A stretch of 64,000 nucleotides of DNA. It comes from Patescibacteria group bacterium (GTDB taxonomy: Bacteria > Patescibacteriota > Patescibacteriia > JACQRZ01). The position numbers and the translations under genes were made by a program. The notes under the pieces are model-generated. The model made no database searches. It had not been told where the DNA came from and saw only the letters and a program-made list of their open reading frames with translations. This document shows, piece after piece, positions 32,570 through 48,283 of this stretch (position 1 is the first letter of the stretch; each line of letters begins with the position of its first letter). Where the stretch lies: positions 9,240 through 73,239 of the forward strand of contig JBBTRI010000006.1 of NCBI GenBank assembly GCA_038065255.1. Reading direction: 5' to 3'.

Positions 32570-33082
32570 ATGCACTATTCATATTGTTTGCTTTGCGGCG
32601 GTGCTCTTAAAAAAACACAAACTTGTTTCGTATGCGTGCAATGCGGTTATGAAGTGTACGAAAACCCAAGACCATCAAGCGGACTTATTTTTTTTACCGA
32701 TAGAAATGAAATCCTTCTATTAAAACGTTCAAGAGAACCTCGTTCTGGTGCATGGGGTATTCCCGCTGGTTTTGTAGATCAACAGGAGAGTTTTGAAGAA
32801 TCCGCAGTACGAGAAGTTCGTGAAGAGCTTGGAATATATTTAAAAACGATGACATATTTTCGATCATATGCTGATATTTATGATTATCAGGGAGTCACAC
32901 TCCCTATTTTGACAGCAATTTTTTGTGCACAACTTGCTCATGATGTGCAGATTAAGCTTGACGCTGAAAATTCTGAATATGCATTTTTTAAGTTTGAAGA
33001 TATTCCTTTTCATAACTTCGGATTTCAAAGCCACTCACAATCAATCCATGATTTTATAAATGAAAAGAATAAAATAATATGA
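32570..33082 (+). CDS. NudC-like Nudix hydrolase with N-terminal C4 zinc ribbon (NADH pyrophosphatase-like)
   Basis: CLLCGG...CFVCVQCGYEVYENP zinc ribbon followed by Nudix box GIPAGFVDQQESFEESAVREVREELGI. Confidence 0.6.
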   Translation: MHYSYCLLCGGALKKTQTCFVCVQCGYEVYENPRPSSGLIFFTDRNEILLLKRSREPRSGAWGIPAGFVDQQESFEESAVREVREELGIYLKTMTYFRSYADIYDYQGVTLPILTAIFCAQLAHDVQIKLDAENSEYAFFKFEDIPFHNFGFQSHSQSIHDFINEKNKII

Positions 33083-37450: not shown

Positions 37451-37490
37451 GAGCCGCACATGCTTACCATGGCGGCGGTGTTTTGGTCTA
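37451..37490. terminator. Bidirectional hairpin between convergent genes
   Basis: agccgc...gcggcgg stem followed by gttttgg. Confidence 0.35.
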
Positions 37491-38735
37491 GTACACGCAT
37501 TTTTGTCTGAACGTGGTTGTGTAGCCGGACTGTTGCTTGAACCATTCTACACGCTCGGGATCGCCGATGGCTTTCTCGATGTTGTCGGAGAGCTTTACAA
37601 GGGAGATTCCATCAGCTTCGGTAGCCTTGATCACCAATGAGAGAGCTTTGAATCCCAGGTCATTGGTGAGGTTGGTTCCCCAGCCGAAGACGAACATGAT
37701 GCGCGTTGCGAATTGTTTGGCAAGGGCATTCATCGCTTTCACATCAAGACCGTCAGAGAATACGATGAGCTTTTCTCGTGCATCGATCCCGTAGAATGCA
37801 TACAGTGCGACGACCTGTTCTCCATATTCTGCCGGATCACCGGAGTCTTGGCGGGTGCCCTTCCATTGCACAGCACGTTCTTTGGTGAATACTTCACGGA
37901 AGAAGAATGGCGAACCATAGGTATCGGTGAGCGCCGTAGAGAGTGCTGATCCGTAGAGATCGTACCAGTCGTCAAGCAATTCTTGCTGAGTTGCGACAAG
38001 ATCATTGCCAAGCGATGCATACACCATCGAAAGTTCATGTGCATTGGTCCCAATGGCTTTGAGTCCATATTTCTTTGCAAGATACACATTCGAAGTTCCG
38101 ATGAATTGCGAAGTTGGTAGAGAGGCTGCAAGCGTACGGACAACATACTCCTGCCATTCTTTGCTGAATCTGCGCCGCGTTCCAAAATCCGAGAAGACAA
38201 TGAATTCATTTCCTTTAATAATCGCAATCTTATCGTCAAGGCGCTTTTTCCCTTCTTCGATACGAGTGCATTTCTCATCTTCAGTGAGTGAATCACACAG
38301 TGATTCACTATACAGCTCAGAAAGAATCGAAAGAGCGATTGTTTCCCAATACGTTACTTCTGCCCATGGGCCGCTGAACGTGAGCGTAAGCGTTCCGTTT
38401 TTTTCGACATCAAGCCGGTAACTCCCCAGTTTGAGTGTCGAAAGGAAGGCAAGATACTTCTTCCTGAAGAGCTTTACGCCATTGAGAGAAAGAGTTCTGA
38501 GGTATTCGATTTCATCATTAGACAGCGAGAGAGTGCGGACGTGGTCAAGCTCTTGCCGCAAACGTTGGATGTCAATGACGTTGCCCAGCTTCACCGACCG
38601 AGTTCTATTGGTCAGCGAAAATGTGACGCGTCGTTTGCCGTGCTTTAAGAAGATAAGCTGCCCCATCGTGAACTTATAGAAGTCAATGTCAAGAAGCGAT
38701 TGTATGATTGGTTCAGAACGAATTGTAAGGTGCAT
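37488..38735 (-). CDS. pncB: Nicotinate phosphoribosyltransferase
   Basis: N-terminal LLDIDFYKFTMGQ (NAPRTase D-x-Y-K-x-TM motif). The start was moved to the MHLTIRS ATG, which is preceded by GAGAGGAGAAAAAATA, because the track ORF has an 84-aa N-terminal overextension. Confidence 0.8.
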   Translation of the reverse strand: MHLTIRSEPIIQSLLDIDFYKFTMGQLIFLKHGKRRVTFSLTNRTRSVKLGNVIDIQRLRQELDHVRTLSLSNDEIEYLRTLSLNGVKLFRKKYLAFLSTLKLGSYRLDVEKNGTLTLTFSGPWAEVTYWETIALSILSELYSESLCDSLTEDEKCTRIEEGKKRLDDKIAIIKGNEFIVFSDFGTRRRFSKEWQEYVVRTLAASLPTSQFIGTSNVYLAKKYGLKAIGTNAHELSMVYASLGNDLVATQQELLDDWYDLYGSALSTALTDTYGSPFFFREVFTKERAVQWKGTRQDSGDPAEYGEQVVALYAFYGIDAREKLIVFSDGLDVKAMNALAKQFATRIMFVFGWGTNLTNDLGFKALSLVIKATEADGISLVKLSDNIEKAIGDPERVEWFKQQSGYTTTFRQKCVY

Positions 38736-38787
38736 TATTTTTTCTCCTCTCTCAACGTTCTTTTTGAAAAAAATATTGAGAGAGAAG

Positions 38788-38829
38788 GGGAGTAGAGGGA
38801 TTTGAAAGAGAATACATATCTCTACTCCC
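38788..38829 (-). terminator. Hairpin plus T-tract between the vWA gene and pncB (possible internal terminator/attenuator)
   Basis: gggagtagag ... ctctactccc perfect 10-bp inverted repeat followed on the minus strand by a T-rich run. Confidence 0.35.
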
Positions 38830-38836
38830 ATTGGGG

Positions 38837-39622
38837 TTAGGTGCCGAATCCTCCCAGAGCGCTGAAACCACCAGTCTTTATGTTGGAGAAGGCGGCAGCA
38901 TTCTGGCTGGCTCTGACGGCAGACTGAGAAACGAACTGGAAGCATTTCCGGATTTCGGAAGGGCTGTTGCCGGGCGTGAGGATGCACGCATCGGGAATGC
39001 CCATCTCCGCGAAAATGCGCCGGAAGTTGGTCTGTCCGTCATCGATGCCCATGGCGAGGATGAGGTGTTCCTCCTGGCGGAGCATGCTGTCTACGACATG
39101 TTTGATGGTTGCAGGCGTGTGCTGGGACGATCCGACATCTGCCCCATCCGTGATGATCACCGTGATCGTACGCGTCGGGACGTTGTTGTCGGCGAACTCC
39201 TTCTTTTTCGCCAGCGACCGGCCGAGGACGATCGCTGCTTTGTCGTAGAGAGGAGTGTTGCCGTAGGGGCGGAAGGTCGTGCCGGTAAGCGGCGCGATGT
39301 TGTCGATGAGCACGTATGGCGAGTAAGTGCCTTTGTTGAGCGCTTCGACGTGCATCAAGATGCCGCTTGCCTGCTTGGAATCCTTGAGAGCCTTCAGAGT
39401 GAGATTGGTTCCGTCGATGAGTACACGGGTGTTTCCCGCATGTTCGATCGAAGAGGAGTCATCGAGGAGGAGTGTGACGATGGTCGTTTCACTCGCCTCG
39501 ACGTCATCGACGCTGATGCCCATGGCGTCCTTGATCTGGGCACCGTAATCGATGATCTGGAGCGTCCGAAGGGCGTCTGCTGTGAGTTCGCCTTCATCCG
39601 CAAGTTCCTTGAATACGTTCAT
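38837..39622 (-). CDS. vWA-domain protein (TerY-like)
   Basis: MIDAS motif LLLDDSSSI ... T ... ITDGAD; Gly-rich C-terminus. The start was moved to MNVFKELADEG, which has AAGGGAG upstream and clears the upstream gene. Confidence 0.7.
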   Translation of the reverse strand: MNVFKELADEGELTADALRTLQIIDYGAQIKDAMGISVDDVEASETTIVTLLLDDSSSIEHAGNTRVLIDGTNLTLKALKDSKQASGILMHVEALNKGTYSPYVLIDNIAPLTGTTFRPYGNTPLYDKAAIVLGRSLAKKKEFADNNVPTRTITVIITDGADVGSSQHTPATIKHVVDSMLRQEEHLILAMGIDDGQTNFRRIFAEMGIPDACILTPGNSPSEIRKCFQFVSQSAVRASQNAAAFSNIKTGGFSALGGFGT

Positions 39623-39695
39623 GGTTGAGAGATCTCCCTTCTGTATGGTGTACGGGGAGGGACACCATACGATCGGCATCCCTCCCGCGGCGGTA

Positions 39696-40745
39696 TTACT
39701 TCCAGGTATCCATGGGATCGGTCGAGAGAACCACGTGCATGCCCGCTTTGGCATAGCGGTCTAGCGAACTTTCCGCCTGGACCGTATAGTCCACGACTCC
39801 CGGCACGACGACGGCGGAGGTGCAATCCCGAAGGATGTACACCTTCTCGGCGAGCGAACGGTCGCGCGCCATGATGTCGTCGAGCAGATCGTCGATGGAG
39901 CTCTTCACGCAGTGGCTTGCAGCCTGTCCTGCGATGATGAGCATGTCAGCGTTCGTGAGCTTGAGGAGGAGCTTGGTGTTGAGGCCTTCCGTGAGCGGCG
40001 CGCCGTCGTAGCGAGTCGTCACTTCAGGTTTGAACACGGAGTAGTTCTCGGTGAGCGGGTGCCCGCCCTTGATTTCCAGAAGCGATTGCCGGCCGCGCGC
40101 GAACGCGTGGAAAAGCCTCGCTTCATTGATCACGCCGGTGAGGGCATGCCCTTCCGTGCCGAGCAGGCAGTGGTAGGGCCAGAGGTAAAGAGTGTACTTG
40201 CCGGACTTTTCGAGTTCGGCGCAGTAGTGCTCCACCTGGTGATTCAGGAACGCCATCACTGCGCTTGGGTTCGCATCTCCGGCGATCCAGTTGGCAACAG
40301 CCGGATTGGGACGATAGATGCCCTGCCGGATCTCTTGCACCGTGATCATGGTGTGGGGGGACGGGTGCGAGCCGTCTTCCTTCAGCCAGAACGACGGGAA
40401 GAAGATCTGGAAGGGGTAGTGCGTATCGAGGGTGAGGGTGATGTCGTCGATGACGCCGAGATTGCGATAGATGAATTCCGCGAAGCGGACGTTGTCATCG
40501 ATCGCACCCCGGCCGCTGCGGGCCCCCACGTAGAGGGAGCCTTCCGGGAAGCAGAAGTCCTTCTGGAGGTCGATGCCGAGGACGTGAATCCGCGACTTTT
40601 TCACGGGCGCGATGGTGTGAGCAGCGCGCCAGCGCTCGGCCTCTTCGAAGACTTTCTGGGACGAGGGGTTGTATCCCCAATTCTCGGCATTCTTCGCCTC
40701 GAAGAGTGGTGGGATGGGGAGTGCGGGATTGGTCGATGTCTTCAT
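39696..40745 (-). CDS. pncA: Nicotinamidase-like cysteine hydrolase (isochorismatase superfamily), enlarged PncA homologue
   Basis: VLGIDLQKDFCFPEGSLYVG matches the PncA D-x-Q-x-D-F-C..GSL signature; DTHYP/SHPSPH metal-site His; catalytic Cys in AGQAASHCVKSS. Confidence 0.65.
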   Translation of the reverse strand: MKTSTNPALPIPPLFEAKNAENWGYNPSSQKVFEEAERWRAAHTIAPVKKSRIHVLGIDLQKDFCFPEGSLYVGARSGRGAIDDNVRFAEFIYRNLGVIDDITLTLDTHYPFQIFFPSFWLKEDGSHPSPHTMITVQEIRQGIYRPNPAVANWIAGDANPSAVMAFLNHQVEHYCAELEKSGKYTLYLWPYHCLLGTEGHALTGVINEARLFHAFARGRQSLLEIKGGHPLTENYSVFKPEVTTRYDGAPLTEGLNTKLLLKLTNADMLIIAGQAASHCVKSSIDDLLDDIMARDRSLAEKVYILRDCTSAVVVPGVVDYTVQAESSLDRYAKAGMHVVLSTDPMDTWK

Positions 40746-40765
40746 CGGGGGCGTCCTTTCGTGTT

Positions 40766-42637
40766 CTAGAGAGTTAGCGTGGTGATTTCATGTGCTGACA
40801 CGACTGCAATGCCGCCCTGGCAGGGAAGCAACGTGCAATCGGCATCAACAAAGTTTTCCGTGTCCGGGAATTCACGTGTTACGACCAGATCGGAACCTGA
40901 TTGCTCCACGCGCACGATACCCCTATCCGTTGGTACGAATAGGAATGGCCCAATCGCGCAACTTCCATTGAACGATGAGAGCCAGCTCGTGTTTGCGGCA
41001 TTGCCTTCCGCCTGCGCCAGGATTACTCCTCGCGCATTAATGAGATAGGTGCGCTGCATGAGCGTGCCGTACTCATCGGTACAGATCGTGAACCAACAGA
41101 GATCCTTAGAGAATCTGCAATTGGCATTGATGATCCGCCCTCTGATCTGAGGCAGACGAACGGAGTCGTTGAGGACTGAGCCTATTGGTTTTGCAATGAA
41201 GGCCTGCGCTAGTGTTCCTGCTCGGTAGAATCCGAATCCGAAAGCGGGTCCTGTCCAAAAGCGTGTGTAGCCGGCGAGTGCAGTGCCCAAGAGCCGTGGT
41301 TCATAGGTGTCATCTTTCAGTACGCGCCCTTGCTCAACCCAGTACAGACTCTCTCCGTCGGTTGCGAATTGCGTTTGTCCTTCGACTAGATCTGCCTGAA
41401 CGACTGAGCGTTGCCCTGACGGGCCATATCGCTCGATAATTCCTTTCGAAGCGATAATGGTATCTGTGCCCACTATGCCGTATTGCATGTCTGGAGTTGT
41501 TTTGCCGTTCACGATGAGTGTTCCTTGTTCACGCTTGAAAGCCCCCTGTTCGTAGGTGATCCATTGGAGCGTTCCGTTGCGTGCAGTTGCATGGATGATG
41601 ATCCTGGTCGTTTTGAAGATGCGTGTTGCTGTCACCGTTCCTCGAATGGTTATGTGTTCTTTAACAATCTGGCGTTGTGGTGTGATGCATGAAGGGCAGG
41701 TGCTTCGGGCGTGGAACAAGCTGCACGTCGGGCACTGCTGAAAGCGAAGAGTTGTGAGAAGCTGCTGAGGAAAGACCCCTCGTTTATCCCGCGTGAAGAT
41801 CTGAGTGAATTCGTGAATTAAGTCATCCGGCAGCATGGAGTAGTGGAGTGCTGGCTTGGGGTAGGCAATATCGGGATGAAAGACAGTCATACGTTCCGCA
41901 AGTCTCTCTCGGTGTCCCATTCTGTGCTTTGATTGTGATGGTTTGTGGATACCTCCATAGGGCCCGACATAGAGCAGAAGTTGCATGAGCATGCATGCAT
42001 ATGCATACCAGTCAGATGTTTCTCTATGGGGAGAGGACAGCATGATCGAATCTTGTATCGTACAGAGCATCGGATCGACGAATCGTTCCGTGAACATTCG
42101 GCAGAGATAGTGTCCAAACTGGAAACTATCCGTATCGATGATCATAGTTCCTGTTCCCTGTACGAGTATGTTGAGATCATTGAAGTCCCCAATTACAACG
42201 CCGATCGCATGGATTTTTTTGAGTGTTGCATGGAGATTTCGCATGATTGCCGGAATCACATCAACGGGGGTACTGCGGCGGAATGCTTTGTCGCTGTAGC
42301 GGATAAGCTCTGTCGCTCCTACGATTTTTTTCATGCTGTATCCCAGTATGCGATTGCTGCGCATATCAGTTGCGCTAGCCATTGGCGTAATGACTTCCGG
42401 TGGCAGGGATGTTGGAAATGCCATGAGTTTTGTCTGGTATTCTTCTAGACGCTCCCGTACAGCTCGCTGGATATCTGGTTGATTGGTAAAGTCGGGGTGG
42501 TCTGGCTGTTTGTAGAGTTTGAATACCAAATCATTTCCGATATCGTAGATGACTGCTTCACCTCCCTGGCCGATAATCCGCTTTGCTTCAAGCTTGAGTG
42601 GCTTGCCATTGAGATTGACGGTAGTCATTGCTCGCAT
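40766..42637 (-). CDS. Ser/Thr protein kinase with C-terminal zinc ribbon and large beta-rich domain
   Basis: Gly loop IGQGGEAVIY, catalytic VIGDFNDLNILV, DTDSF; CPTCSLFHARSTCPSC ribbon; about 300-aa C-terminal domain. Confidence 0.7.
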   Translation of the reverse strand: MRAMTTVNLNGKPLKLEAKRIIGQGGEAVIYDIGNDLVFKLYKQPDHPDFTNQPDIQRAVRERLEEYQTKLMAFPTSLPPEVITPMASATDMRSNRILGYSMKKIVGATELIRYSDKAFRRSTPVDVIPAIMRNLHATLKKIHAIGVVIGDFNDLNILVQGTGTMIIDTDSFQFGHYLCRMFTERFVDPMLCTIQDSIMLSSPHRETSDWYAYACMLMQLLLYVGPYGGIHKPSQSKHRMGHRERLAERMTVFHPDIAYPKPALHYSMLPDDLIHEFTQIFTRDKRGVFPQQLLTTLRFQQCPTCSLFHARSTCPSCITPQRQIVKEHITIRGTVTATRIFKTTRIIIHATARNGTLQWITYEQGAFKREQGTLIVNGKTTPDMQYGIVGTDTIIASKGIIERYGPSGQRSVVQADLVEGQTQFATDGESLYWVEQGRVLKDDTYEPRLLGTALAGYTRFWTGPAFGFGFYRAGTLAQAFIAKPIGSVLNDSVRLPQIRGRIINANCRFSKDLCWFTICTDEYGTLMQRTYLINARGVILAQAEGNAANTSWLSSFNGSCAIGPFLFVPTDRGIVRVEQSGSDLVVTREFPDTENFVDADCTLLPCQGGIAVVSAHEITTLTL

Positions 42638-43536
42638 ACCTCGTTTCTTTTTCCCAGAATCACCGTCGTATCATCCGGCAGCAACCCTGGATTTCTTGCA
42701 ATTGCTGTTCCGAGATTATTCATGCGGACAACATCTGTTGCTATCGCAGAAAGTCGGCGTCGAAGCGCATCACGATTCATCACGTAGCGTTCCTCAGTCC
42801 AGAATTGACTGACTGGTCCGATAGGTGAATCGGTTCCCGGAAGCATGTCGGATTCATGGCGCTGCAGGTGGGCTATTCCATCTGTTGCAAGAAGGAAATG
42901 ATGAAGATCATTGGTTGCTATCACTCGGTTGACAGTGAGAATGAGCGATTGTGGTGGCAGAGATGTTTTCACGAGACGATAAGCTAGGTAGGGCGGCGAA
43001 TTTGCTTCCGCTATTTCGAGCGGTAGGTGTTCGCCATTTATTACCATTGCGCCATCGCCAAGCGAAAAGAACGCAGCATGGGTTGCTGTCATGAGAACAC
43101 CGACAATCGTGAAGAGGAGATGGTCCTGCACAAAGATTGCACGATCCTCCACTTCCATACTGGTGATAAGTGCAGAGAGTTTTACACAGACACGCCCCGG
43201 TATTCCCTCGCGCCATTCCCAGTGATTTTGGTGATCAAAGAGGAGATGTTGGCTTTCCGGAGCGTAGTTGTTGAGCGCGCGCAGAACTTCACTGCATACA
43301 AGGCGCGCACCAAGCACTGCGCCAATTTCATTGTGGTTAGTAGTATTTTCATGTTGACTACCACTGCCGCACCCATCTGTTACGACCGCTATAGTTGCGT
43401 TGTGTTGATGTATGACACAGAAACCATCATGATTGTTTTTTCCCGATCGTATGTGATCACGTCCCGTTACTGATGCATGGGCAAATGTGAAAGGTAGGTG
43501 TGATTCAAGAAAGGTTTTTGTCGTAGACATTTTCAA
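42625..43536 (-). CDS. PP2C-family Ser/Thr phosphatase (PP2C_2-like)
   Basis: VTDGCGSG, ATDGIAHL and DDTTVI metal-binding Asp motifs; overlaps the kinase gene by 13 nt. Confidence 0.7.
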   Translation of the reverse strand: MKMSTTKTFLESHLPFTFAHASVTGRDHIRSGKNNHDGFCVIHQHNATIAVVTDGCGSGSQHENTTNHNEIGAVLGARLVCSEVLRALNNYAPESQHLLFDHQNHWEWREGIPGRVCVKLSALITSMEVEDRAIFVQDHLLFTIVGVLMTATHAAFFSLGDGAMVINGEHLPLEIAEANSPPYLAYRLVKTSLPPQSLILTVNRVIATNDLHHFLLATDGIAHLQRHESDMLPGTDSPIGPVSQFWTEERYVMNRDALRRRLSAIATDVVRMNNLGTAIARNPGLLPDDTTVILGKRNEVCEQ

Positions 43537-43622
43537 TGTACAGTTGCCGCATCGTAGAGATGCAGGTCTCAGAGCTTAGTAAGGTTTTCTGGTGGTTAAG
43601 TACTGAGATCTTCATTCTACAA

Positions 43623-43860
43623 GTGTACTAAGTACACTAACTAAGAGGCAAAAAATAATATGGAGACGTAAGGGAGGGGAGTGGTTTGTGATGCCTGCAA
43701 TTGAGATACTAATATTGTATTATATACACTAACTAAGAGGCGAAAAAATAAGTGGAAGAAGAAGCTATAGAGTGAAAAAAGAGATGGACAGACAGGAAAA
43801 ATGATAGAGTGGCAGTCATATAGGTGTATATAATACACTAACTAGGGATAAAAAAATAAA
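43623..43860. repeat. Three direct repeats (about 27 bp, spaced 92 and 109 bp) each preceded by a GTGTA(C/T)...(A/G)TACAC palindrome; candidate operator array
   Basis: tacactaactaagaggcaaaaaataa at 43633, 43725 and, as a variant, 43834; palindromes gtgtactaagtacac (43623-43637) and gtgtatataatacac (43823-43837). Confidence 0.6.
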
Positions 43861-43875
43861 TAGGGATAGGCACTA

Positions 43876-44592
43876 TCAGAGAATATCTACAAATTCGGGA
43901 ATGCGTTTTTTGAAGGTATAGAGTTCTGCGGGGCGGTTTGCCGTGCCTCGGCGTTTCTTTCCTGTTGCGCGGATAAGACCTAGTGAGAGTATTTTTTTGC
44001 GAAAGTTTCGCTTGTCAAGCTTGCGGCCGAGAATCACTTCATATACCGATTGCAGTTCGCTGAGTGTGAATTCTTTAGATAGAAGGCTATAACTGATGGT
44101 GCTATAGGCAAGTTTGCTTTTGAGGCGATCGATTGCTCGTGAGATGATTTCACTATGGTCATAGGCTAGCGAAGGAAGTTTTTTGATGGGAAACCAATCA
44201 ATTCCTGCATAATCAGCTGTCGTTTTTAATGACACATTGGTGCTTGGTATGAGTGCAAAGTAGGCGACGGATACTACGCGTCCGCGAGGGTCACGGTCTA
44301 CACGGCCAAATGTATAGAGCTGCTCGAGGTAGACGTCTTTGACGTTTGTTTTTGCTCGGAGATGGCGGAGGGCTGCCTCGTCGGCTGATTCGTCCGGCGT
44401 AATAAGTCCGCCGGGTATGGCCCACATGTTGACATAGGGTTGCCGTGTCATTTTGATAAGCAGTACTTTGAGTTGGCCATTCTGGATGGTAAAGATGACG
44501 ATATCAGTTGCAAGTATTGCGTGGACAAATTGTTTGAGTGGTGCGATGGGCATATACTTAGTGTCTAACATACACATACTAGCATATCTCAA
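43876..44592 (-). CDS. nrtR: NrtR-family transcriptional regulator (Nudix-like effector domain + C-terminal wHTH)
   Basis: Nudix-like WAIPGGLITPDESADEAALRHL, plus C-terminal ELQSVYEVILGRKLDKRNFRKKILSLGLI characteristic of the NrtR DNA-binding domain; the start may be a downstream Met. Confidence 0.7.
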   Translation of the reverse strand: MRYASMCMLDTKYMPIAPLKQFVHAILATDIVIFTIQNGQLKVLLIKMTRQPYVNMWAIPGGLITPDESADEAALRHLRAKTNVKDVYLEQLYTFGRVDRDPRGRVVSVAYFALIPSTNVSLKTTADYAGIDWFPIKKLPSLAYDHSEIISRAIDRLKSKLAYSTISYSLLSKEFTLSELQSVYEVILGRKLDKRNFRKKILSLGLIRATGKKRRGTANRPAELYTFKKRIPEFVDIL

Positions 44593-44739
44593 AACCCTGT
44601 CAAGAGGGAAGTCTGAGAATTATTGAGAAAAAGGAAATAGTACTGTATTTATGCGATAAAATACCACCTCTTCTTTTGTAGGAGTCTTTTAATCAATCCC
44701 AATTTTTGGTAGAGTAGGAAGAGTTATACACACTCACCT

Positions 44740-46224
44740 ATGACCATCCTTTTTCCTGGCAGGCACCATATTCTTACGTCATTTCAACATGATACACTTA
44801 AGTCGCTTGTGTACCACGGCTGGAAGGGCAAGAAGATACGTCGCATTGTCATTGCTGTCACATCAGCAAACCACGAAAATACCCGCCGCAATCCCTTGCC
44901 GCTCCATCTGCGCACTATGGCAATTCAAGAATGTTTTCGAGATATCGGGTGTGAAGTAAAAATCTATCCAATACCGGATACTGCGCCTACCAATGAATAC
45001 GCCCAGTATCTTCTTTCGCATATTCAGTACCAGGGAGGGCAACTGCTTCGGCCATCGAATACGCTGTTGGCATGCTCGACACCGGATGTCATCCGTTTGT
45101 TTACCAAGCTTGGTTTTAGCCATCATTCCATGGAGCTCGTTTCAGCAGCAACCAATAGCTATTCGGTGTCGCGCCCGTTTGAAGTTATCAATTCTCTCGT
45201 ACAAGCTGGCACAAACTGGAGAAAGGATCAAATATGGCGAATGTATGCCCATCTTTCATCCCAGCAGATTTATGATACGTATAATATTGGTGATCTGATC
45301 GTCGAGCTCTTTTCTGATGCCCTTCTCAATGATGATGCCGATATCACTGAAACGAGGAATTACCAGACGTATGCACTCTCAATGGACTCTGTTATACATA
45401 TCAAATTTCAGGACATCGAACCGTTTATAGTCGAAGGTAAAATTGTTGATGTGGGATGTTCAACCGGTTCATTGGTTCGTTTGCTTGCGAAGCATTTTAA
45501 CGAATCGGATATTATCGGTATCGAAGCAGTACGTCGTTTCTATGAATACTGCCGCTCGCAGGAGTATGATAACCCCTTTGTTTTTTTCTATAGAAGAAAT
45601 ATCACCGACCAAGTATTCAAAGATCACTCCATTAACACGTGTATTTATTCATCCGTTCTTCATGAAGTGTATTCGTATCTTGGTGAAAAACTTCTTCATA
45701 GGGTTCTTCACAACACGTATAAACAGCTTAAAAAAGGAGGGAGAATCATTATCCGAGATGTTGTGGGGCCTGAACACCCCAATTCAACCGTTCTTTTATC
45801 TCTCAATGAAAAAGACGGCAAAGCGAGTGGTGCAATCGGACAGCTTTCAACTTATGCAAAATTTTTCAGATTCGCTGAGGAATTCATTCCACGAAAAATC
45901 AAGTATACTGTCGTAACACGAGGAGGAGTGAGGTATATCAAGCTTCGCTTGCAAGATGCGTATGAATACTTGAGTAAAATGACGTATGTCGACAACTGGA
46001 AAAGCGAACTTCATGAAGAGTTTGGGTTTTATTCGTATACGGGTTGGGTGAAACTTCTTGAGCGAATGGGGTTCCGTATTGTAAATGGCTCAAAAACTTT
46101 TTCTAATGAATATATCATTAAAAACAAGTATGAGCCGCGAGCTACACTCTATGTGGCACAAGGATCATCATTGCGGCAGATCGACTATCCGCCGACAAAT
46201 ATGATACTCGTCGGTGAAAAATAA
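44740..46224 (+). CDS. Fusion protein: NadM-like (archaeal-type NMN adenylyltransferase-like) nucleotidyltransferase domain + class I SAM-dependent methyltransferase domain
   Basis: N-terminus GRHHILTSFQH and VTSANHENTRRNPLPLHLRTMAI ... YPIP resemble NadM GRFQPFHxGH / GSxx...RNP...ER.MI / YPIP; C-terminus VDVGCSTGSLV, IIGIE, IYSSVLHEV, LKKGGRIII MTase motifs. Confidence 0.5.
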   Translation: MTILFPGRHHILTSFQHDTLKSLVYHGWKGKKIRRIVIAVTSANHENTRRNPLPLHLRTMAIQECFRDIGCEVKIYPIPDTAPTNEYAQYLLSHIQYQGGQLLRPSNTLLACSTPDVIRLFTKLGFSHHSMELVSAATNSYSVSRPFEVINSLVQAGTNWRKDQIWRMYAHLSSQQIYDTYNIGDLIVELFSDALLNDDADITETRNYQTYALSMDSVIHIKFQDIEPFIVEGKIVDVGCSTGSLVRLLAKHFNESDIIGIEAVRRFYEYCRSQEYDNPFVFFYRRNITDQVFKDHSINTCIYSSVLHEVYSYLGEKLLHRVLHNTYKQLKKGGRIIIRDVVGPEHPNSTVLLSLNEKDGKASGAIGQLSTYAKFFRFAEEFIPRKIKYTVVTRGGVRYIKLRLQDAYEYLSKMTYVDNWKSELHEEFGFYSYTGWVKLLERMGFRIVNGSKTFSNEYIIKNKYEPRATLYVAQGSSLRQIDYPPTNMILVGEK

Positions 46225-46230
46225 TAATCT

Positions 46231-47130
46231 ATGAAACGCATTGCCATACTTGGAGCAGGGGAGCTTGGAAGCTGTATTGGGAAGCTTCTTCAAAAAAATA
46301 AAAAATTATCAATTGAATGGTGGGATGCCAATCCTCAAAAGGTGCCCAATCAAAAACCTCTCGCAACACTTGTCTCTTGTACAGATTTTTTGTTTCTCTG
46401 TGTACCGTCATGGGTGTTTCGCAAGGCGCTCGAACAGGTGCGGCCGCATCTCAAAAAAACGACCATTGTTGTTTCATTTGCAAAAGGTATTGAGCGGAAA
46501 ACACAGCTCACTATGGATGTGCTTTTGAATGAAGTATTGCATCGAAACCAACCCACTGTTCTTGTGAGTGGACCCATGCTTGCGGAGGAGTTGGAAATGA
46601 ATCTTCCCGCAGGAGGCATTCTTGCTGCAAAAAATAGGCGTGCGTACGAAAGAGTTGCCGCATTATTTGCACATACGCCAATCACATGCTGCTATTCGTC
46701 CGATGTCCGTGGCGTTGCGCTTGCGGGAGTTTTGAAAAATATCTATGCAACGGCTTTGGGTGCAGTTGACGGTTTGGGGTTGGGAATGAATGCAAGAGGG
46801 CTTGTTATTGTGCGAGCGGCAGATGAAATGGCGCGGATACTTCCTTTGCTTGGCGGCAAGGCTGCAACAACTTATTCATTGGCAGGTATCGGCGATTTGA
46901 TTGCAACCGGTTCAAGTAACTATTCGAAAAATTACAGTGTCGGTAAAGAACTTGCTCTGTCCGGCGTGTGCGGTATTGAAAGTGAAGGAAAATCTTCCAT
47001 TGCAGCATTTGAATCGATGCTTGGCGGCAAGGCAGCAACATTCAAGCTGTTTCAAGTTGTCAAAGCTATTTTGTCATGCAAAAAAGACGCCCGCTCAGCA
47101 TTAAGCCGTTATTTTAAGAAATGTGAATAA
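46231..47130 (+). CDS. gpsA: NAD(P)H-dependent glycerol-3-phosphate dehydrogenase
   Basis: N-terminal ILGAGELGS Rossmann motif; GVLKNIYATALGAVDGLGLGMNARG. Confidence 0.7.
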   Translation: MKRIAILGAGELGSCIGKLLQKNKKLSIEWWDANPQKVPNQKPLATLVSCTDFLFLCVPSWVFRKALEQVRPHLKKTTIVVSFAKGIERKTQLTMDVLLNEVLHRNQPTVLVSGPMLAEELEMNLPAGGILAAKNRRAYERVAALFAHTPITCCYSSDVRGVALAGVLKNIYATALGAVDGLGLGMNARGLVIVRAADEMARILPLLGGKAATTYSLAGIGDLIATGSSNYSKNYSVGKELALSGVCGIESEGKSSIAAFESMLGGKAATFKLFQVVKAILSCKKDARSALSRYFKKCE

Positions 47131-48283
47131 TCAAACCGCTGCACTCGTGCTTGATGTTGGCACATCGAGTATCAAGGCATTTGTATTTGATCAGACATAT
47201 CAGTGTTTGGCTCAAAGCGAACGAAAGCTATCAATATGTCATCCAAAACGTGCACATGTTGAGCAAAATCCAAAGGAACTTTTACGCTTGAGCGCCACAG
47301 TTCTTAAAACAGCTGTACGTTTATCGGGTATTCATCCATCGCGCATGGTGATGGGAATTACGAATCAGCGAGAAACAACCATTCTATGGGATGCCAAGAC
47401 TGGTAAGTCGGTCTATCCAGCAATTGTATGGCAGGATAGGCGAACGGAAAAACAATGCTATTCGCTCAAACGCCATGCATCTGATGTCCGTTCAAGAACG
47501 GGCCTTGTGCTTTCTTCTTATTTTTCGGCATCCAAAATAGCATGGGTACTTAGAAATGTTCCAAAAGCTCAGACTCTCATACGTCAAAATCGCCTACTGT
47601 TTGGCACTGTTGATTCCTGGCTGCTATGGAACTTTGTGGAAGGCAGGCCTCATCTGACAGATTTCACTAATGCAGCACGAACATTGCTTTTTAATATTCA
47701 GACGCTTTTCTGGGATACAAAACTTCTCGGTATATTCGGTGTGCCGCGAGAGCTTATGCCAAAGGTTGTTCCATCGCAGTACGAGTATGGCAGAGTAAAA
47801 AAAGAAATTCTTGGGTATTCTATTCCACTTCTCGCTGTATGTGGAGACCAGCAATCTGGTATGGCGGCAGCTGGCAGTAAAAAAGGTACAACGAAAGTAA
47901 CATATGGCACTGGTACGTTTGTGATGCAATCTCTCGGTACGATATTTGCAGCTCAAAAGAATTTTTTTACCACGCTCATACCCAATCATGGTACGCCGTA
48001 TTATGCACTCGAGGCAAAGATTGACGTTGGAGGCAAGGAAGTTGAACGGGCGCTCCATAGTAAAAAGAAGCTTATTGCACAGCTTACACGCATTGCATGC
48101 TTAGTGGATAAACGTCTTAAAGAATTACCCTTACAGCCACGCGTACTTGTGATAGACGGGGGTGTAACGCGGGATGGGCTCATGAAAACTATCCAGGAGC
48201 AGGTTTCGGGAATCCCCATACAGCCACTCTCGACGTTTCATGGCACAGCTCTTGGTATAGCAAAACTCCTTCTTGACAGGTAG
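47123..48283 (+). CDS. FGGY-family carbohydrate kinase, glycerol-kinase-like (short)
   Basis: ITNQRETTILWDAKTGKSVYPAIVWQDRRTE, GTVDSWLLWN, GDQQSGMAAAG, TYGTGTF. Confidence 0.7.
   Translation: MNNQTAALVLDVGTSSIKAFVFDQTYQCLAQSERKLSICHPKRAHVEQNPKELLRLSATVLKTAVRLSGIHPSRMVMGITNQRETTILWDAKTGKSVYPAIVWQDRRTEKQCYSLKRHASDVRSRTGLVLSSYFSASKIAWVLRNVPKAQTLIRQNRLLFGTVDSWLLWNFVEGRPHLTDFTNAARTLLFNIQTLFWDTKLLGIFGVPRELMPKVVPSQYEYGRVKKEILGYSIPLLAVCGDQQSGMAAAGSKKGTTKVTYGTGTFVMQSLGTIFAAQKNFFTTLIPNHGTPYYALEAKIDVGGKEVERALHSKKKLIAQLTRIACLVDKRLKELPLQPRVLVIDGGVTRDGLMKTIQEQVSGIPIQPLSTFHGTALGIAKLLLDR

Follow-up and report, generated by a model that had tools for sequence, protein, structure and literature searches.

A NadM-derived domain fused to a class I SAM-dependent methyltransferase, encoded divergently from nrtR in a Patescibacteria genome

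Beside the gene for the NAD regulator NrtR, a Patescibacteria contig carries an open reading frame in which a domain resembling the NMN adenylyltransferase (NMNAT) NadM is joined to a SAM-dependent methyltransferase (MTase). The locus raises the question of whether the first domain still acts as an adenylyltransferase, and of what a methyltransferase might do in the setting of NAD salvage. The analysis followed up an annotation (the original prediction) made from the letters of a 64,000-nucleotide stretch of DNA, here called the window. The features of the window are collected in Table 1.

Table 1. Positions of the fusion gene, its domains and the surrounding features in the window
Feature	Position	Strand	Remarks
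NadM-like/class I methyltransferase fusion ORF	44740..46224	+	494 aa, ATG start
N-terminal NadM-derived Rossmann-like domain	44740..45330	+	aa 1 to ~197; 1f9a homology, Foldseek, AF2 model pLDDT 93
Low-confidence linker	45331..45357	+	aa 197-205; pLDDT <50; leads into DITxTRxYxxY before motif I
C-terminal class I SAM-dependent methyltransferase	45358..46224	+	aa ~206-494; Pfam, NF005379, Foldseek
nrtR (Nudix + winged-helix regulator)	43876..44553	-	NUDIX + NrtR_WHD E 7e-26; NF050029 E 4e-50
Candidate NrtR operator GTGT-CTAACAT-ACAC	44557..44579		nrtR/fusion divergent region; PWM score 9.0 (weak)
Three 51-nt direct repeats (family D1)	43614..43865		between nrtR and PP2C operon; spacing 92 and 109 nt
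gpsA-like NAD(P)H glycerol-3-phosphate dehydrogenase	46231-47130	+	Pfam + NCBIfam
Short glycerol kinase	47123-48283	+	Pfam + NCBIfam
NrtR-box-preceded operon	37488..43536	-	PP2C to PncB
PP2C	42625-43536	-	
Kinase-like protein	40766-42637	-	623 aa
Nicotinamidase-like protein, divergent in sequence	39696-40745	-	349 aa
Unknown protein	38837-39754	-	305 aa
PncB	37488-38987	-	

The fusion gene and its distribution

The start Met of the ORF was, by alignment, the same Met at which its homologues begin, and in a homology search a protein from a Patescibacteria MAG matched it with 100% identity. Homologues amounted to 1052 full-length hits, and the Patescibacteria and DPANN, ultra-small bacteria and archaea that have shed most of their metabolism, yet keep the fusion at 55-60% identity; homologues from cultured Bacteroidota and Leptospira were 36-40% identical. 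The same fusion, which the original prediction had proposed to seek in other genomes, was found in 440 GTDB species of CPR, DPANN archaea, cultured Bacteroidota, Leptospira and Planctomycetota. A profile of the N-terminal domain matched only 280 clusters in 1.84 billion representatives, the full-length ones being nearly all 480-570 aa long.

The possibility that an assembly error or frameshift had joined two separate genes was rejected, since the identical architecture recurs in >1000 proteins from these 440 species, some of them represented by complete genomes of cultured strains. The artefact is further opposed by the even composition along the whole ORF and by a confident two-domain AF2 model of the whole protein (pLDDT 89.5); its probability is negligible, and a real, conserved family uniting a NadM-like domain with a methyltransferase is practically certain. 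No homologue was found in the phage genomes searched, and a role in phage NAD reconstitution is therefore without support.

As the original prediction had supposed, no functional description of such a fusion was found, the public names of its homologues being only "transferase", "hypothetical" or "methyltransferase domain-containing". The paper on the NrtR regulon mentions no methyltransferase and lists nrtX-nrtY as unknown targets (PMC2330246); follow-up literature on nrtX-nrtY was sought and none was found. The fusion is likewise unmentioned in the Aravind-lab survey of NAD/ADPr systems (PMC9503650), and searches of the literature on bacterial pyridine N-methyltransferases and NadM-MTase fusions returned nothing relevant.

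The two domains

The N-terminal domain was compared with NMNATs by profile and by structure. A profile of 23 sequences matched the M. jannaschii enzyme (MJ0541, 1f9a) at E 1.2e-7, hhalign against the same structure gave 97.3% probability (E 2e-11), and in Foldseek each of the 12 best PDB matches of the domain model was an archaeal NMNAT, with E values from 1e-8 to 4e-7 and a target-normalised TM of 0.73-0.82. The resemblance to NadM that had been read from the strings GRHHILTSFQH (aa 7-17), VTSANHENTRRNPLPLHLRTMAI (aa 40-62) and YPIP (aa 76-79) is thus beyond chance, the nucleotidyltransferase fold is present in the model, and the first ~200 aa were found, by profile homology and predicted structure, to derive from an archaeal-type NMN adenylyltransferase. 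In spite of this significant homology the curated family models stayed far below their thresholds, with 17.3 bits for TIGR01527 (cut-off 181) and 17 bits for NF002243 (cut-off 127).

Like NadM (1f9a; M. thermoautotrophicum 1ej2/1hyb; TIGR01527), the domain has a Rossmann-like HIGH-superfamily fold of ~190 residues. In both, strand 1 ends in G-R, and strand 2 is followed by (G/T)S...NP...R, strand 3 by YPIP-D and an aromatic residue, and strand 4 by S-(G/T)-(N)-P. The family motifs, for which residue frequencies were taken from 178 members, read G7-R8-H9-H10-x-L-T13-x-F15-Q16, T41-S42-A-N-H45-x-N-T48-R49-R50-N51-P52...R58, Y76-P-I-P-D80, S113-T114-P115 and E132-L133. The half-site for the pyridine mononucleotide (T41-S42, N51-P52, R58, D80, F/Y87 and S113-T114-P115) was invariant or nearly so and aligned with NadM; by this alignment the elements that hold the pyridine mononucleotide there (TS..NP..R, YPIPD with the aromatic residue, and STP) are kept here. 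Unlike NadM, the family adds the invariant residues H9, H45, T48, R49, R50 and E132, extends ~30 aa further at the C-terminal end of the domain and is nearly always joined to the methyltransferase.

The two ATP-phosphate signatures of NadM, in contrast, are lost as judged from the alignments. Where the HxGH box would be stands the near-invariant GRH(H/Q)xLTxFQ: the equivalent positions T13-x-F15-Q16, placed in register from the AF2 secondary structure, held Thr in 173/176, Phe in 167 and Gln in 175 of the 178 members, and the preceding G7/R8 (148/148) and H9 (145/148) were equally constant. The original prediction of a "degenerate H-x-G-H" box was right that the box is altered; it had let the box end in H17, which is unconserved (H59/F37/Y32 of 178 members), whereas the two His correspond to T13 and Q16, both of them near-invariant. 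PPAT is an active enzyme with Thr in place of the first HxGH His, a counterpoint to the reading favoured below. The second signature, SxTxxR / ISSTxxR where helix E begins, was unrecognisable; hhalign left a 13-residue gap opposite YSGTEIRRR, with an alternative register YS..RP possible, and R145, the sole candidate Arg, is Leu or Met in a distant branch. The family may be described as a natural HIGH-superfamily nucleotidyltransferase whose signature motif has been swapped for a different, equally conserved one. In view of TxFQ in place of HxGH, the non-canonical second ATP motif and the low scores of the curated models, the label "NMN adenylyltransferase domain" was not retained.

What the domain does was considered under two main readings. 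The one that we tentatively favour, and to which we give somewhat less than an even chance, is that a NadM-derived module has been rebuilt for nucleotide binding and coupled to SAM methylation of an NAD-related metabolite, as a core target of NrtR. The main reading of the original prediction was that the domain is an active NMN/NaMN adenylyltransferase, with a relocated catalytic set (G-R-H9-H10, R49/R50) replacing HxGH, and that the methyltransferase modifies its precursor or product; this bifunctional enzyme appears unlikely, with a chance that is nevertheless appreciable. The NadM homology and fold speak for it, as do a pocket ringed by near-invariant basic residues and the invariant R8, which corresponds to Arg11 in the ATP site of the M. 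thermoautotrophicum enzyme; judged from the sequence, the conserved Arg/His-rich loops (R8, H9, H45, R49, R50, R58) would be expected of a catalytic site as well as of a binding module. It is opposed by the replacement of HxGH, whose Gly has given way to a bulky Phe, by the unrecognisable SxTxxR motif, with R145 not retained in the distant branch, by the scores against curated NMNAT models, and by the replacement of H10 with Gln in Chryseolinea and Niastella.

The methyltransferase motifs that had been placed at aa ~215-400 held up. Pfam Methyltransf_11 (40.3 bits, cut-off 21.2), Methyltransf_25 (37.4, 27), Methyltransf_31 (33.9, 27) and Methyltransf_12 (30.6, 30) matched aa 231-345 above their curated cut-offs, and NF005379 matched aa 205-442; of the two kinds of domain model suggested for checking the fusion these were detected, whereas Pfam CTP_transf_like gave no match on the protein even at E<=1. 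Motif I was VDVGCSTG (aa 236-243), followed by the acidic residue E262, N287 and H308-E309..S312-Y313; V-D237-x-G239-C-x-x-G243, E262 and N287 were near-invariant among the 178 members, and H308/E309 were invariant, as were T203, R206, Y208 and Y211 in the segment preceding motif I. In strand order the AF2 model agreed with class I methyltransferases, to which ~880 Foldseek hits were obtained, with small-molecule enzymes matched at E ~1e-9. From sequence and model, the C-terminal 290 aa were identified as a class I SAM-dependent methyltransferase that is intact and bears a conserved cap rich in acidic and aromatic residues, and the predicted architecture of a NadM-type fold plus such a methyltransferase holds.

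With the class I small-molecule enzymes (Methyltransf_11/25/31; NF005379 PRK06922; 3g5l, 1vlm, 3bkw) this half shares the GxGxG of motif I, the acidic residue after strand 2, a fold of seven strands and, following strand 5, an inserted cap; a D/N after strand 3, another hallmark of class I, is present as well. It differs from them in that the cap insertion of ~90 aa (aa ~345-440) bears the family-specific motif YxDNWxSExHEEFGF. A PDB sequence search and Foldseek against PDB returned only generic class I methyltransferases and no close characterised relative; the nearest relatives, PRK06922 (best NCBIfam) and Bacillus plasmid homologues, are uncharacterised and lie in uninformative contexts (CRISPR/Fic, plasmid backbone).

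These properties bear on a third reading, in which the NadM-like domain is no more than a sensor of NAD, NMN or ATP and gates a methyltransferase that acts on protein, RNA or lipid outside NAD metabolism. The loss of the catalytic motifs speaks for it; the methyltransferase half has no specific characterised relative, METTL6-type RNA methyltransferases occur among its weak matches, and the NMNAT domain of NadR doubles as a co-repressor site. The cap, however, is conserved as strongly as in a small-molecule enzyme, and the best structural matches are small-molecule methyltransferases. We regard this reading as improbable, and it is taken up again below with the neighbouring genes.

Neighbouring genes and NrtR operators

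A homologue of nrtR was located <=10 kb from the fusion in 58/85 loci, together with NADK (31 loci), NadE (19), PF15891 (18) and PncA (16) within the same distance. An unbiased census of 108 immediate neighbours was headed by NUDIX (17), NrtR_WHD (16) and ADP-ribosylglycohydrolase (5), NrtR_WHD being the top specific family, and it contained no second functional theme, which speaks against a methyltransferase acting outside NAD metabolism. Within 10 kb of the fusion, no seed homologue of a gene of NAD metabolism was detected in Leptospira or in some planctomycete loci, and in Leptospira the fusion gene follows a thiolase gene; this favours the sensor with an outside substrate and is also a counterpoint to the binding module that we prefer.

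The usual setting of the fusion was an NAD-salvage cluster, often one already equipped with a canonical NMNAT. By our count, ~17/24 of the NAD clusters with the fusion also held an adenylyltransferase of the NadM, NadD or NadR type, and a Bacteroidota operon with the fusion already has NadV and NadM-Nudix. This suggests that the fusion is not the housekeeping NMNAT; the context also counts against the adenylyltransferase label and against the bifunctional enzyme. For the Bacteroidota operon it had been considered that its 299-aa Nudix protein might lack an NMNAT domain, leaving the fusion as sole candidate; this was rejected, as the protein matches NadM-Nudix structures.

Other observations on gene order favour an active adenylyltransferase and are counterpoints to the binding module. 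No other NMNAT-like gene was found near the fusion in this window or in loci L005, L008, L014/15 and L036; the fusion is the sole NMNAT-like gene in the PncA-like/PncB locus of the window and in L005 (pncB, then the fusion). In several loci it lies on the same strand as the NAD kinase gene, directly before or after it, with a 4-nt overlap in L033, an adjacency that would suit an NAD-producing enzyme.

In the window the fusion ORF and nrtR are divergently oriented. The true start of nrtR is likely not the TTG at 44592 but an ATG at 44553, a choice based on the sequence and the promoter position: a sigma-70-like nrtR promoter (TTGACA-16-TAGTAT) was recognised at 44603..44576 on the - strand, and the candidate operator, which includes a TGT-N7-ACA match at 44562-44574, overlaps its -10/TSS. 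Downstream, the stop of the fusion is separated by a 6-nt gap from the gpsA-like gene, which overlaps the glycerol kinase gene; these two genes (46231..48283) are probably co-transcribed with the fusion, and their pairing with it did not recur in the other loci examined. The order of the PP2C-PncB operon is shared by L005/L006, with PncB and then the fusion at the end, and the module also adjoins the fusion in L029, L030 and L036.

The published core operator of NrtR is GT-N7-AC (PMC2330246). In the divergent CPR/DPANN loci this palindrome was found in 16/16 cases at a fixed distance, ~53 nt upstream of the fusion ATG, so that in these ultra-small lineages the fusion is the gene that shares an operator with the NAD regulator. 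The window holds 17 TGT-N7-ACA sites, 4 of them inside the 950 bp around nrtR, and each of the 51-nt repeats carries a perfect short NrtR-like palindrome (GTGTAC-TAA-GTACAC, TGTAT-TAT-ATACA and GTGTAT-ATA-ATACAC). The link to NrtR, which the original prediction had drawn from the divergent arrangement, became far stronger through the 58/85 loci and the common operator, and on the sequence evidence the fusion very probably belongs to the NrtR/NAD regulon. A simple scan of the Bacteroidota fusion loci found no common GT-N7-AC operator. All that emerged was a lineage-specific palindrome, ATTTTGC-N11-GCAAAAT, in two loci.

Proposed function and known systems

Under the reading that we prefer, the family would be a core target of the ADP-ribose-responsive regulator NrtR, which would de-repress it together with the salvage genes while NAD is consumed. 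The remodelled NadM pocket would no longer serve as the NMN adenylyltransferase of the cell and would instead bind one of the pyridine or adenine nucleotides that take part in the NAD cycle (NMN/NaMN, NAD(P) or ADP-ribose), as a substrate-recognition module or a sensor. The methyltransferase domain would use SAM to methylate either that ligand or a near relative of it among the metabolites of the NAD cycle.

Two-domain proteins of comparable design are known. NadM-Nudix (Synechocystis slr0787, 2qjo; Francisella, 2qjt) joins an NMNAT-type domain to a second catalytic domain related to NAD, as the fusion may do, and NadR joins NMNAT to a ribosylnicotinamide kinase and uses its NMNAT domain also as an NAD sensor; their genes lie in salvage loci controlled by NrtR or NadR, and NadM itself is tied to NrtR-regulated salvage. 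The fusion differs from both in having a SAM methyltransferase as partner and in a weaker structural match (Foldseek E ~1e-4). To our knowledge, a SAM methyltransferase has no known role in prokaryotic NAD metabolism; the routes of NAD biosynthesis and salvage there count as all but completely mapped, and no SAM-dependent step is among them. The only well-known SAM methylations of NAD-cycle pyridines of which we are aware are those by eukaryotic NNMT and by plant nicotinate N-methyltransferase (trigonelline synthase), which for that reason are the obvious functional analogy. Nicotinamide, nicotinate and a nucleotide, the substrates put forward in the original prediction, are conjectural candidates. 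Unlike the fusion, these enzymes are without a nucleotidyltransferase-like domain, and they show no specific sequence relationship to it; Pfam gave no match at E<=0.1 to the NNMT_PNMT_TEMT and plant SABATH-type families, and only generic Methyltransf_* models were hit.

The joining of a methyltransferase to an NMNAT-like domain, its conservation and the operator common with NrtR argue that the picture of NAD/ADP-ribose homeostasis still lacks a reaction or control point. More specifically, the family might use SAM to methylate, in a reaction so far undescribed, a pyridine nucleotide or a derivative of ADP-ribose held in the rebuilt NadM-derived pocket, a proposal that we consider possible and rather doubtful. 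Candidate reactions would be ribose O-methylation, or carboxyl or phosphate methylation, of NMN, NaMN, NAD(P) or ADPR. If so, the product would be a new metabolite of the NAD cycle, its synthesis switched on by NrtR in CPR, DPANN, Bacteroidota and other phyla. Such a product might be a form of the cofactor that resists NADase or serves as a store, or it might neutralise reactive ADP-ribose or tune the effector of NrtR. Cultured bacteria with an orthologue (Marivirga tractuosa, Niastella vici, Chryseolinea lacunae and Leptospira kobayashii) make the question directly testable.

Architecture and distribution of the fusion family

The 494-aa reading frame joining a NadM-like N-domain to a class I SAM-dependent methyltransferase (the fusion) has an unremarkable base composition along its length and contains all of the sequence strings quoted in the original prediction; its product is identical to a Patescibacteria MAG protein. 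More than 1000 homologues were found, almost all full-length at 485-505 aa, with 55-60% identity across Patescibacteria (CPR) and DPANN archaea (Nanoarchaeota, Pacearchaeota and Woesearchaeota); members of a more distant branch are longer (about 530-540 aa) and about 40% identical. With each GTDB species represented by a single genome, a scan found relatives in 440 species, and cultured free-living carriers include Marivirga tractuosa (complete genome), Niastella vici, Chryseolinea lacunae, Fulvivirga, Leptospira spp., Planctomycetota and Myxococcota. An assembly artefact, such as the frameshift join of two genes considered earlier, was therefore excluded as the origin of this recurring architecture. 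In an exhaustive HMM search among 1.84 billion representatives, the N-domain alone was found in only 280 clusters, whose complete proteins were nearly all 480-570 aa, so that the N-domain is practically confined to the fusion. Both folds are already known, and public databases list the proteins by generic labels ('transferase', 'hypothetical protein', 'uncharacterized protein', 'methyltransferase domain-containing protein'); no description of the family, its altered motif or its place in the NrtR regulon was found in the literature.

NadM-derived N-domain and methyltransferase domain

The NadM resemblance claimed for the N-terminal 200 residues needed proper testing, because single-sequence matches to archaeal NMNAT models were sub-threshold (E about 3e-3, 17 bits). 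A profile built from 23 N-domains matched the M. jannaschii NMN adenylyltransferase structure 1f9a (E 1.2e-7), and hhalign of the N-domain against the 1f9a sequence gave 97.3% probability (E 2e-11; target residues 24-125 verified). The AlphaFold pLDDT was 89.5 for the full-length protein and 93 for the N-domain alone, and the best 12 PDB matches of the N-domain were all archaeal NMNATs (about 193 aligned columns, target-normalised TM 0.73-0.82), followed by NadM-Nudix, human NMNAT and cytidylyltransferases. On this evidence NadM ancestry is established, and the objection that a nucleotidyltransferase fold might be lacking falls away.

The H-x-G-H box, described in the original prediction as degenerate, is absent in its canonical form. 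H17, its supposed last histidine, is variable; in the register set by secondary structure, T13 and Q16 stand where the two histidines would be, and F15 takes the place of the glycine. Among 178 distinct family members, T13 (173/176), F15 (167) and Q16 (175) were near-invariant, with an invariant G7-R8-H9 followed by H/Q10 upstream; thus, where NadM has its HIGH motif, the fusion family has a different conserved motif. Facing the YSGTEIRRR helix, the second ATP-phosphate motif of NadM, the hhalign alignment of the N-domain showed a 13-residue gap, and R145, the only candidate arginine for this motif, is replaced by Leu or Met in the distant branch. The mononucleotide-side elements of NadM were kept (T41-S42, N51-P52, R58, D80 with F/Y87, and S113-T114-P115), and family-specific invariant residues were added (H45, T48, R/K49, R50 and E132). 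Judged from sequence, the catalytic signatures differ from those of an NMNAT; because the replacement motifs are near-invariant, the mononucleotide elements retained and invariant residues added, the pocket is rebuilt under strong selection rather than decayed.

The C-terminal part is a methyltransferase, as proposed, with Pfam Methyltransf_11/25/31/12 above curated thresholds on residues 231-345. Near-invariant columns comprise motif I (VDxGCxxG), the acidic E262, N287 and the H308-E309..S312-Y313 segment, and in the model the class I fold has its seven strands, with about 90 residues inserted past strand 5. Foldseek matched the domain to hundreds of small-molecule methyltransferases of class I (E about 1e-9), none of which stood out as a specific neighbour. 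The closest curated model was NF005379/PRK06922 (E 2e-20, aa 205-442); tracing of this group and other Bacillus plasmid relatives revealed no characterised member. The cap motif YxDNWxSExHEEFGF is acidic- and aromatic-rich; by inference, this composition would fit an acceptor that is cationic (pyridinium or amine) or carries a diol.

Linkage to NrtR and NAD genes

The predicted divergent nrtR neighbour was confirmed by its domains, and the same arrangement was found in 3/3 close homologues on long contigs, where the adjoining clusters encode PncA, PncB, NadE, NAD kinase, NadD/NadM-Nudix, NadR, PnuC, NadB, ADP-ribosylglycohydrolase and a PF15891 protein. Within 10 kb of the fusion, homologues of NrtR were found in 58 of 85 loci, of NAD kinase in 31, NadE in 19, PF15891 in 18 and PncA in 16. 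In the distant branch the fusion lies directly 3' of pncB, and an unbiased Pfam census of 108 immediate neighbours was led by NUDIX (17), NrtR_WHD (16) and ADP-ribosylglycohydrolase (5). No competing functional theme was seen among these neighbours; a sensor-gated methyltransferase with a non-NAD target is regarded as improbable. In Leptospira loci a thiolase gene precedes the fusion and no NAD genes were seen nearby. In the planctomycete locus nadK overlaps the fusion start by 4 nt. Across several phyla the family belongs to NAD loci linked to NrtR, and its close branch has a predicted operator.

Tentatively, the N-domain would be a nucleotide-binding module, either substrate-presenting or sensing, and the methyltransferase domain would probably act on an NAD-cycle metabolite. 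A bifunctional enzyme, in which an active NMNAT/NaMNAT has relocated its catalytic residues, appears less likely: the Arg/His-rich invariant pocket, the coupling to NAD kinase and a window locus without another NMNAT (the rest of the 64 kb has no homologue of NadD, NadM, NadR, NadE or NADK) favour it, but both ATP signatures are non-canonical and canonical adenylyltransferases usually occur in the same clusters (about 17/24 fusion-containing NAD clusters, manual count). For these last two reasons the N-domain is more likely a binding module than the adenylyltransferase of the pathway. The family is broadly conserved and closely tied to a regulon that is well studied. It suggests that a SAM-dependent step is missing from the known NAD/ADP-ribose metabolism, and can be tested in cultured organisms.

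The PF15891 protein (about 150 aa, nucleoside 2-deoxyribosyltransferase-like) is frequent in CPR/DPANN NAD clusters and often lies immediately 3' of the fusion in convergent orientation. Operons of the nrtR...nadK-fusion type in Bacteroidota and a planctomycete conserve a small protein of 120-144 aa together with an SPFH/Band 7 protein of about 340 aa; such a membrane-scaffold pair is unexpected for an NAD operon.

Candidate operators and the window locus

In 16/16 divergent CPR/DPANN loci, a palindrome with the consensus ATAGTGT-N7-ACAATAAG, followed by TATTTAAA, was located about 53 nt 5' of the fusion ATG, and it matches the published NrtR operator core GT-N7-AC (PMC2330246). TGT-N7-ACA was not enriched over the window as a whole (17 observed, 14.8 expected), yet four of these sites fall inside 950 bp around nrtR. 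Because candidate NrtR sites cluster there, the window holds an NrtR-centred locus of three units. One site overlaps the -10/TSS of a good sigma-70-like predicted nrtR promoter; the other three are perfect short palindromes of NrtR-box type (GTGTAC-TAA-GTACAC, TGTAT-TAT-ATACA and GTGTAT-ATA-ATACAC) inside direct repeats, each followed by CTAACTAAGAGGC.AAAAAATAA. An array of three operators would be out of the ordinary for NrtR. Two Chitinophagaceae loci (L054 and L079) share a different perfect palindrome, which may be a lineage-specific NrtR operator distinct from the GT-N7-AC type.

Features of the window and of other fusion loci (L numbers denote surveyed loci of other genomes)
Feature	Location	Strand	Remarks
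Fusion ORF	44740-46224	+	uninterrupted 494 codons, ATG start
nrtR (unit 1)	43876-44592	-	NUDIX + NrtR winged-helix domain, E 7e-26; divergent from fusion
Unit 2			fusion-gpsA-glpK
Unit 3	37488-43536	-	PP2C, kinase-like, PncA-like, 305 aa, PncB
Candidate operator, TGT-N7-ACA	44562-44574		nrtR/fusion divergent region
Three 51-nt direct repeats	43614-43865		spacing 92 and 109 nt; 340-bp nrtR-PP2C gap
glpK (glycerol kinase)	47123-48283		386 aa vs about 500; overlaps gpsA end
Stand-alone second Nudix protein	32570-33082		170 aa; phmmer E 2e-8
ATTTTGC-N11-GCAAAAT	L054, L079		5-35 nt upstream of fusion ATG, nrtR/fusion divergent region
PF15891 protein	L001 7533-7994; L002 10814-11278; L004 9392-9832		15 further loci
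Small protein + SPFH pair	L035 6562-8048; L033 7698-9063; L053; L062
Chryseolinea-type Bacteroidota operon			nrtR, NadM-Nudix-like, NadV, 144 aa, SPFH, NAD kinase, ARH, fusion
Planctomycete operon			nrtR, 120 aa, SPFH, nadK, fusion, pncB, pncA, pnuC, nadR

A module of a PP2C phosphatase, a 623-aa protein (weak protein-kinase/LanL-type kinase match), a 349-aa divergent nicotinamidase-like protein and a protein of 280-305 aa that matches no family recurs in NrtR/NAD loci of unrelated lineages (the window, L005/L006, L029, L030 and L036). PncB lies directly 3' of it in the window and L005/L006 and 5' of it in L036, and the fusion is the last gene of the string in L005/L006 and L036. The module suggests that nicotinamide salvage is phospho-regulated or has an extra branch. 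Positions 38000-42000, where the 305-aa and PncA-like genes and part of the kinase-like gene lie, have a GC content of 0.52-0.56 against 0.39-0.47 elsewhere in the window, and horizontal acquisition of the module is possible. The window glpK product has a strong FGGY_N domain and a weak remnant of FGGY_C, and may be truncated or degenerate. The stand-alone Nudix protein shows weak similarity to the Nudix portions of NrtR and NadM-Nudix.
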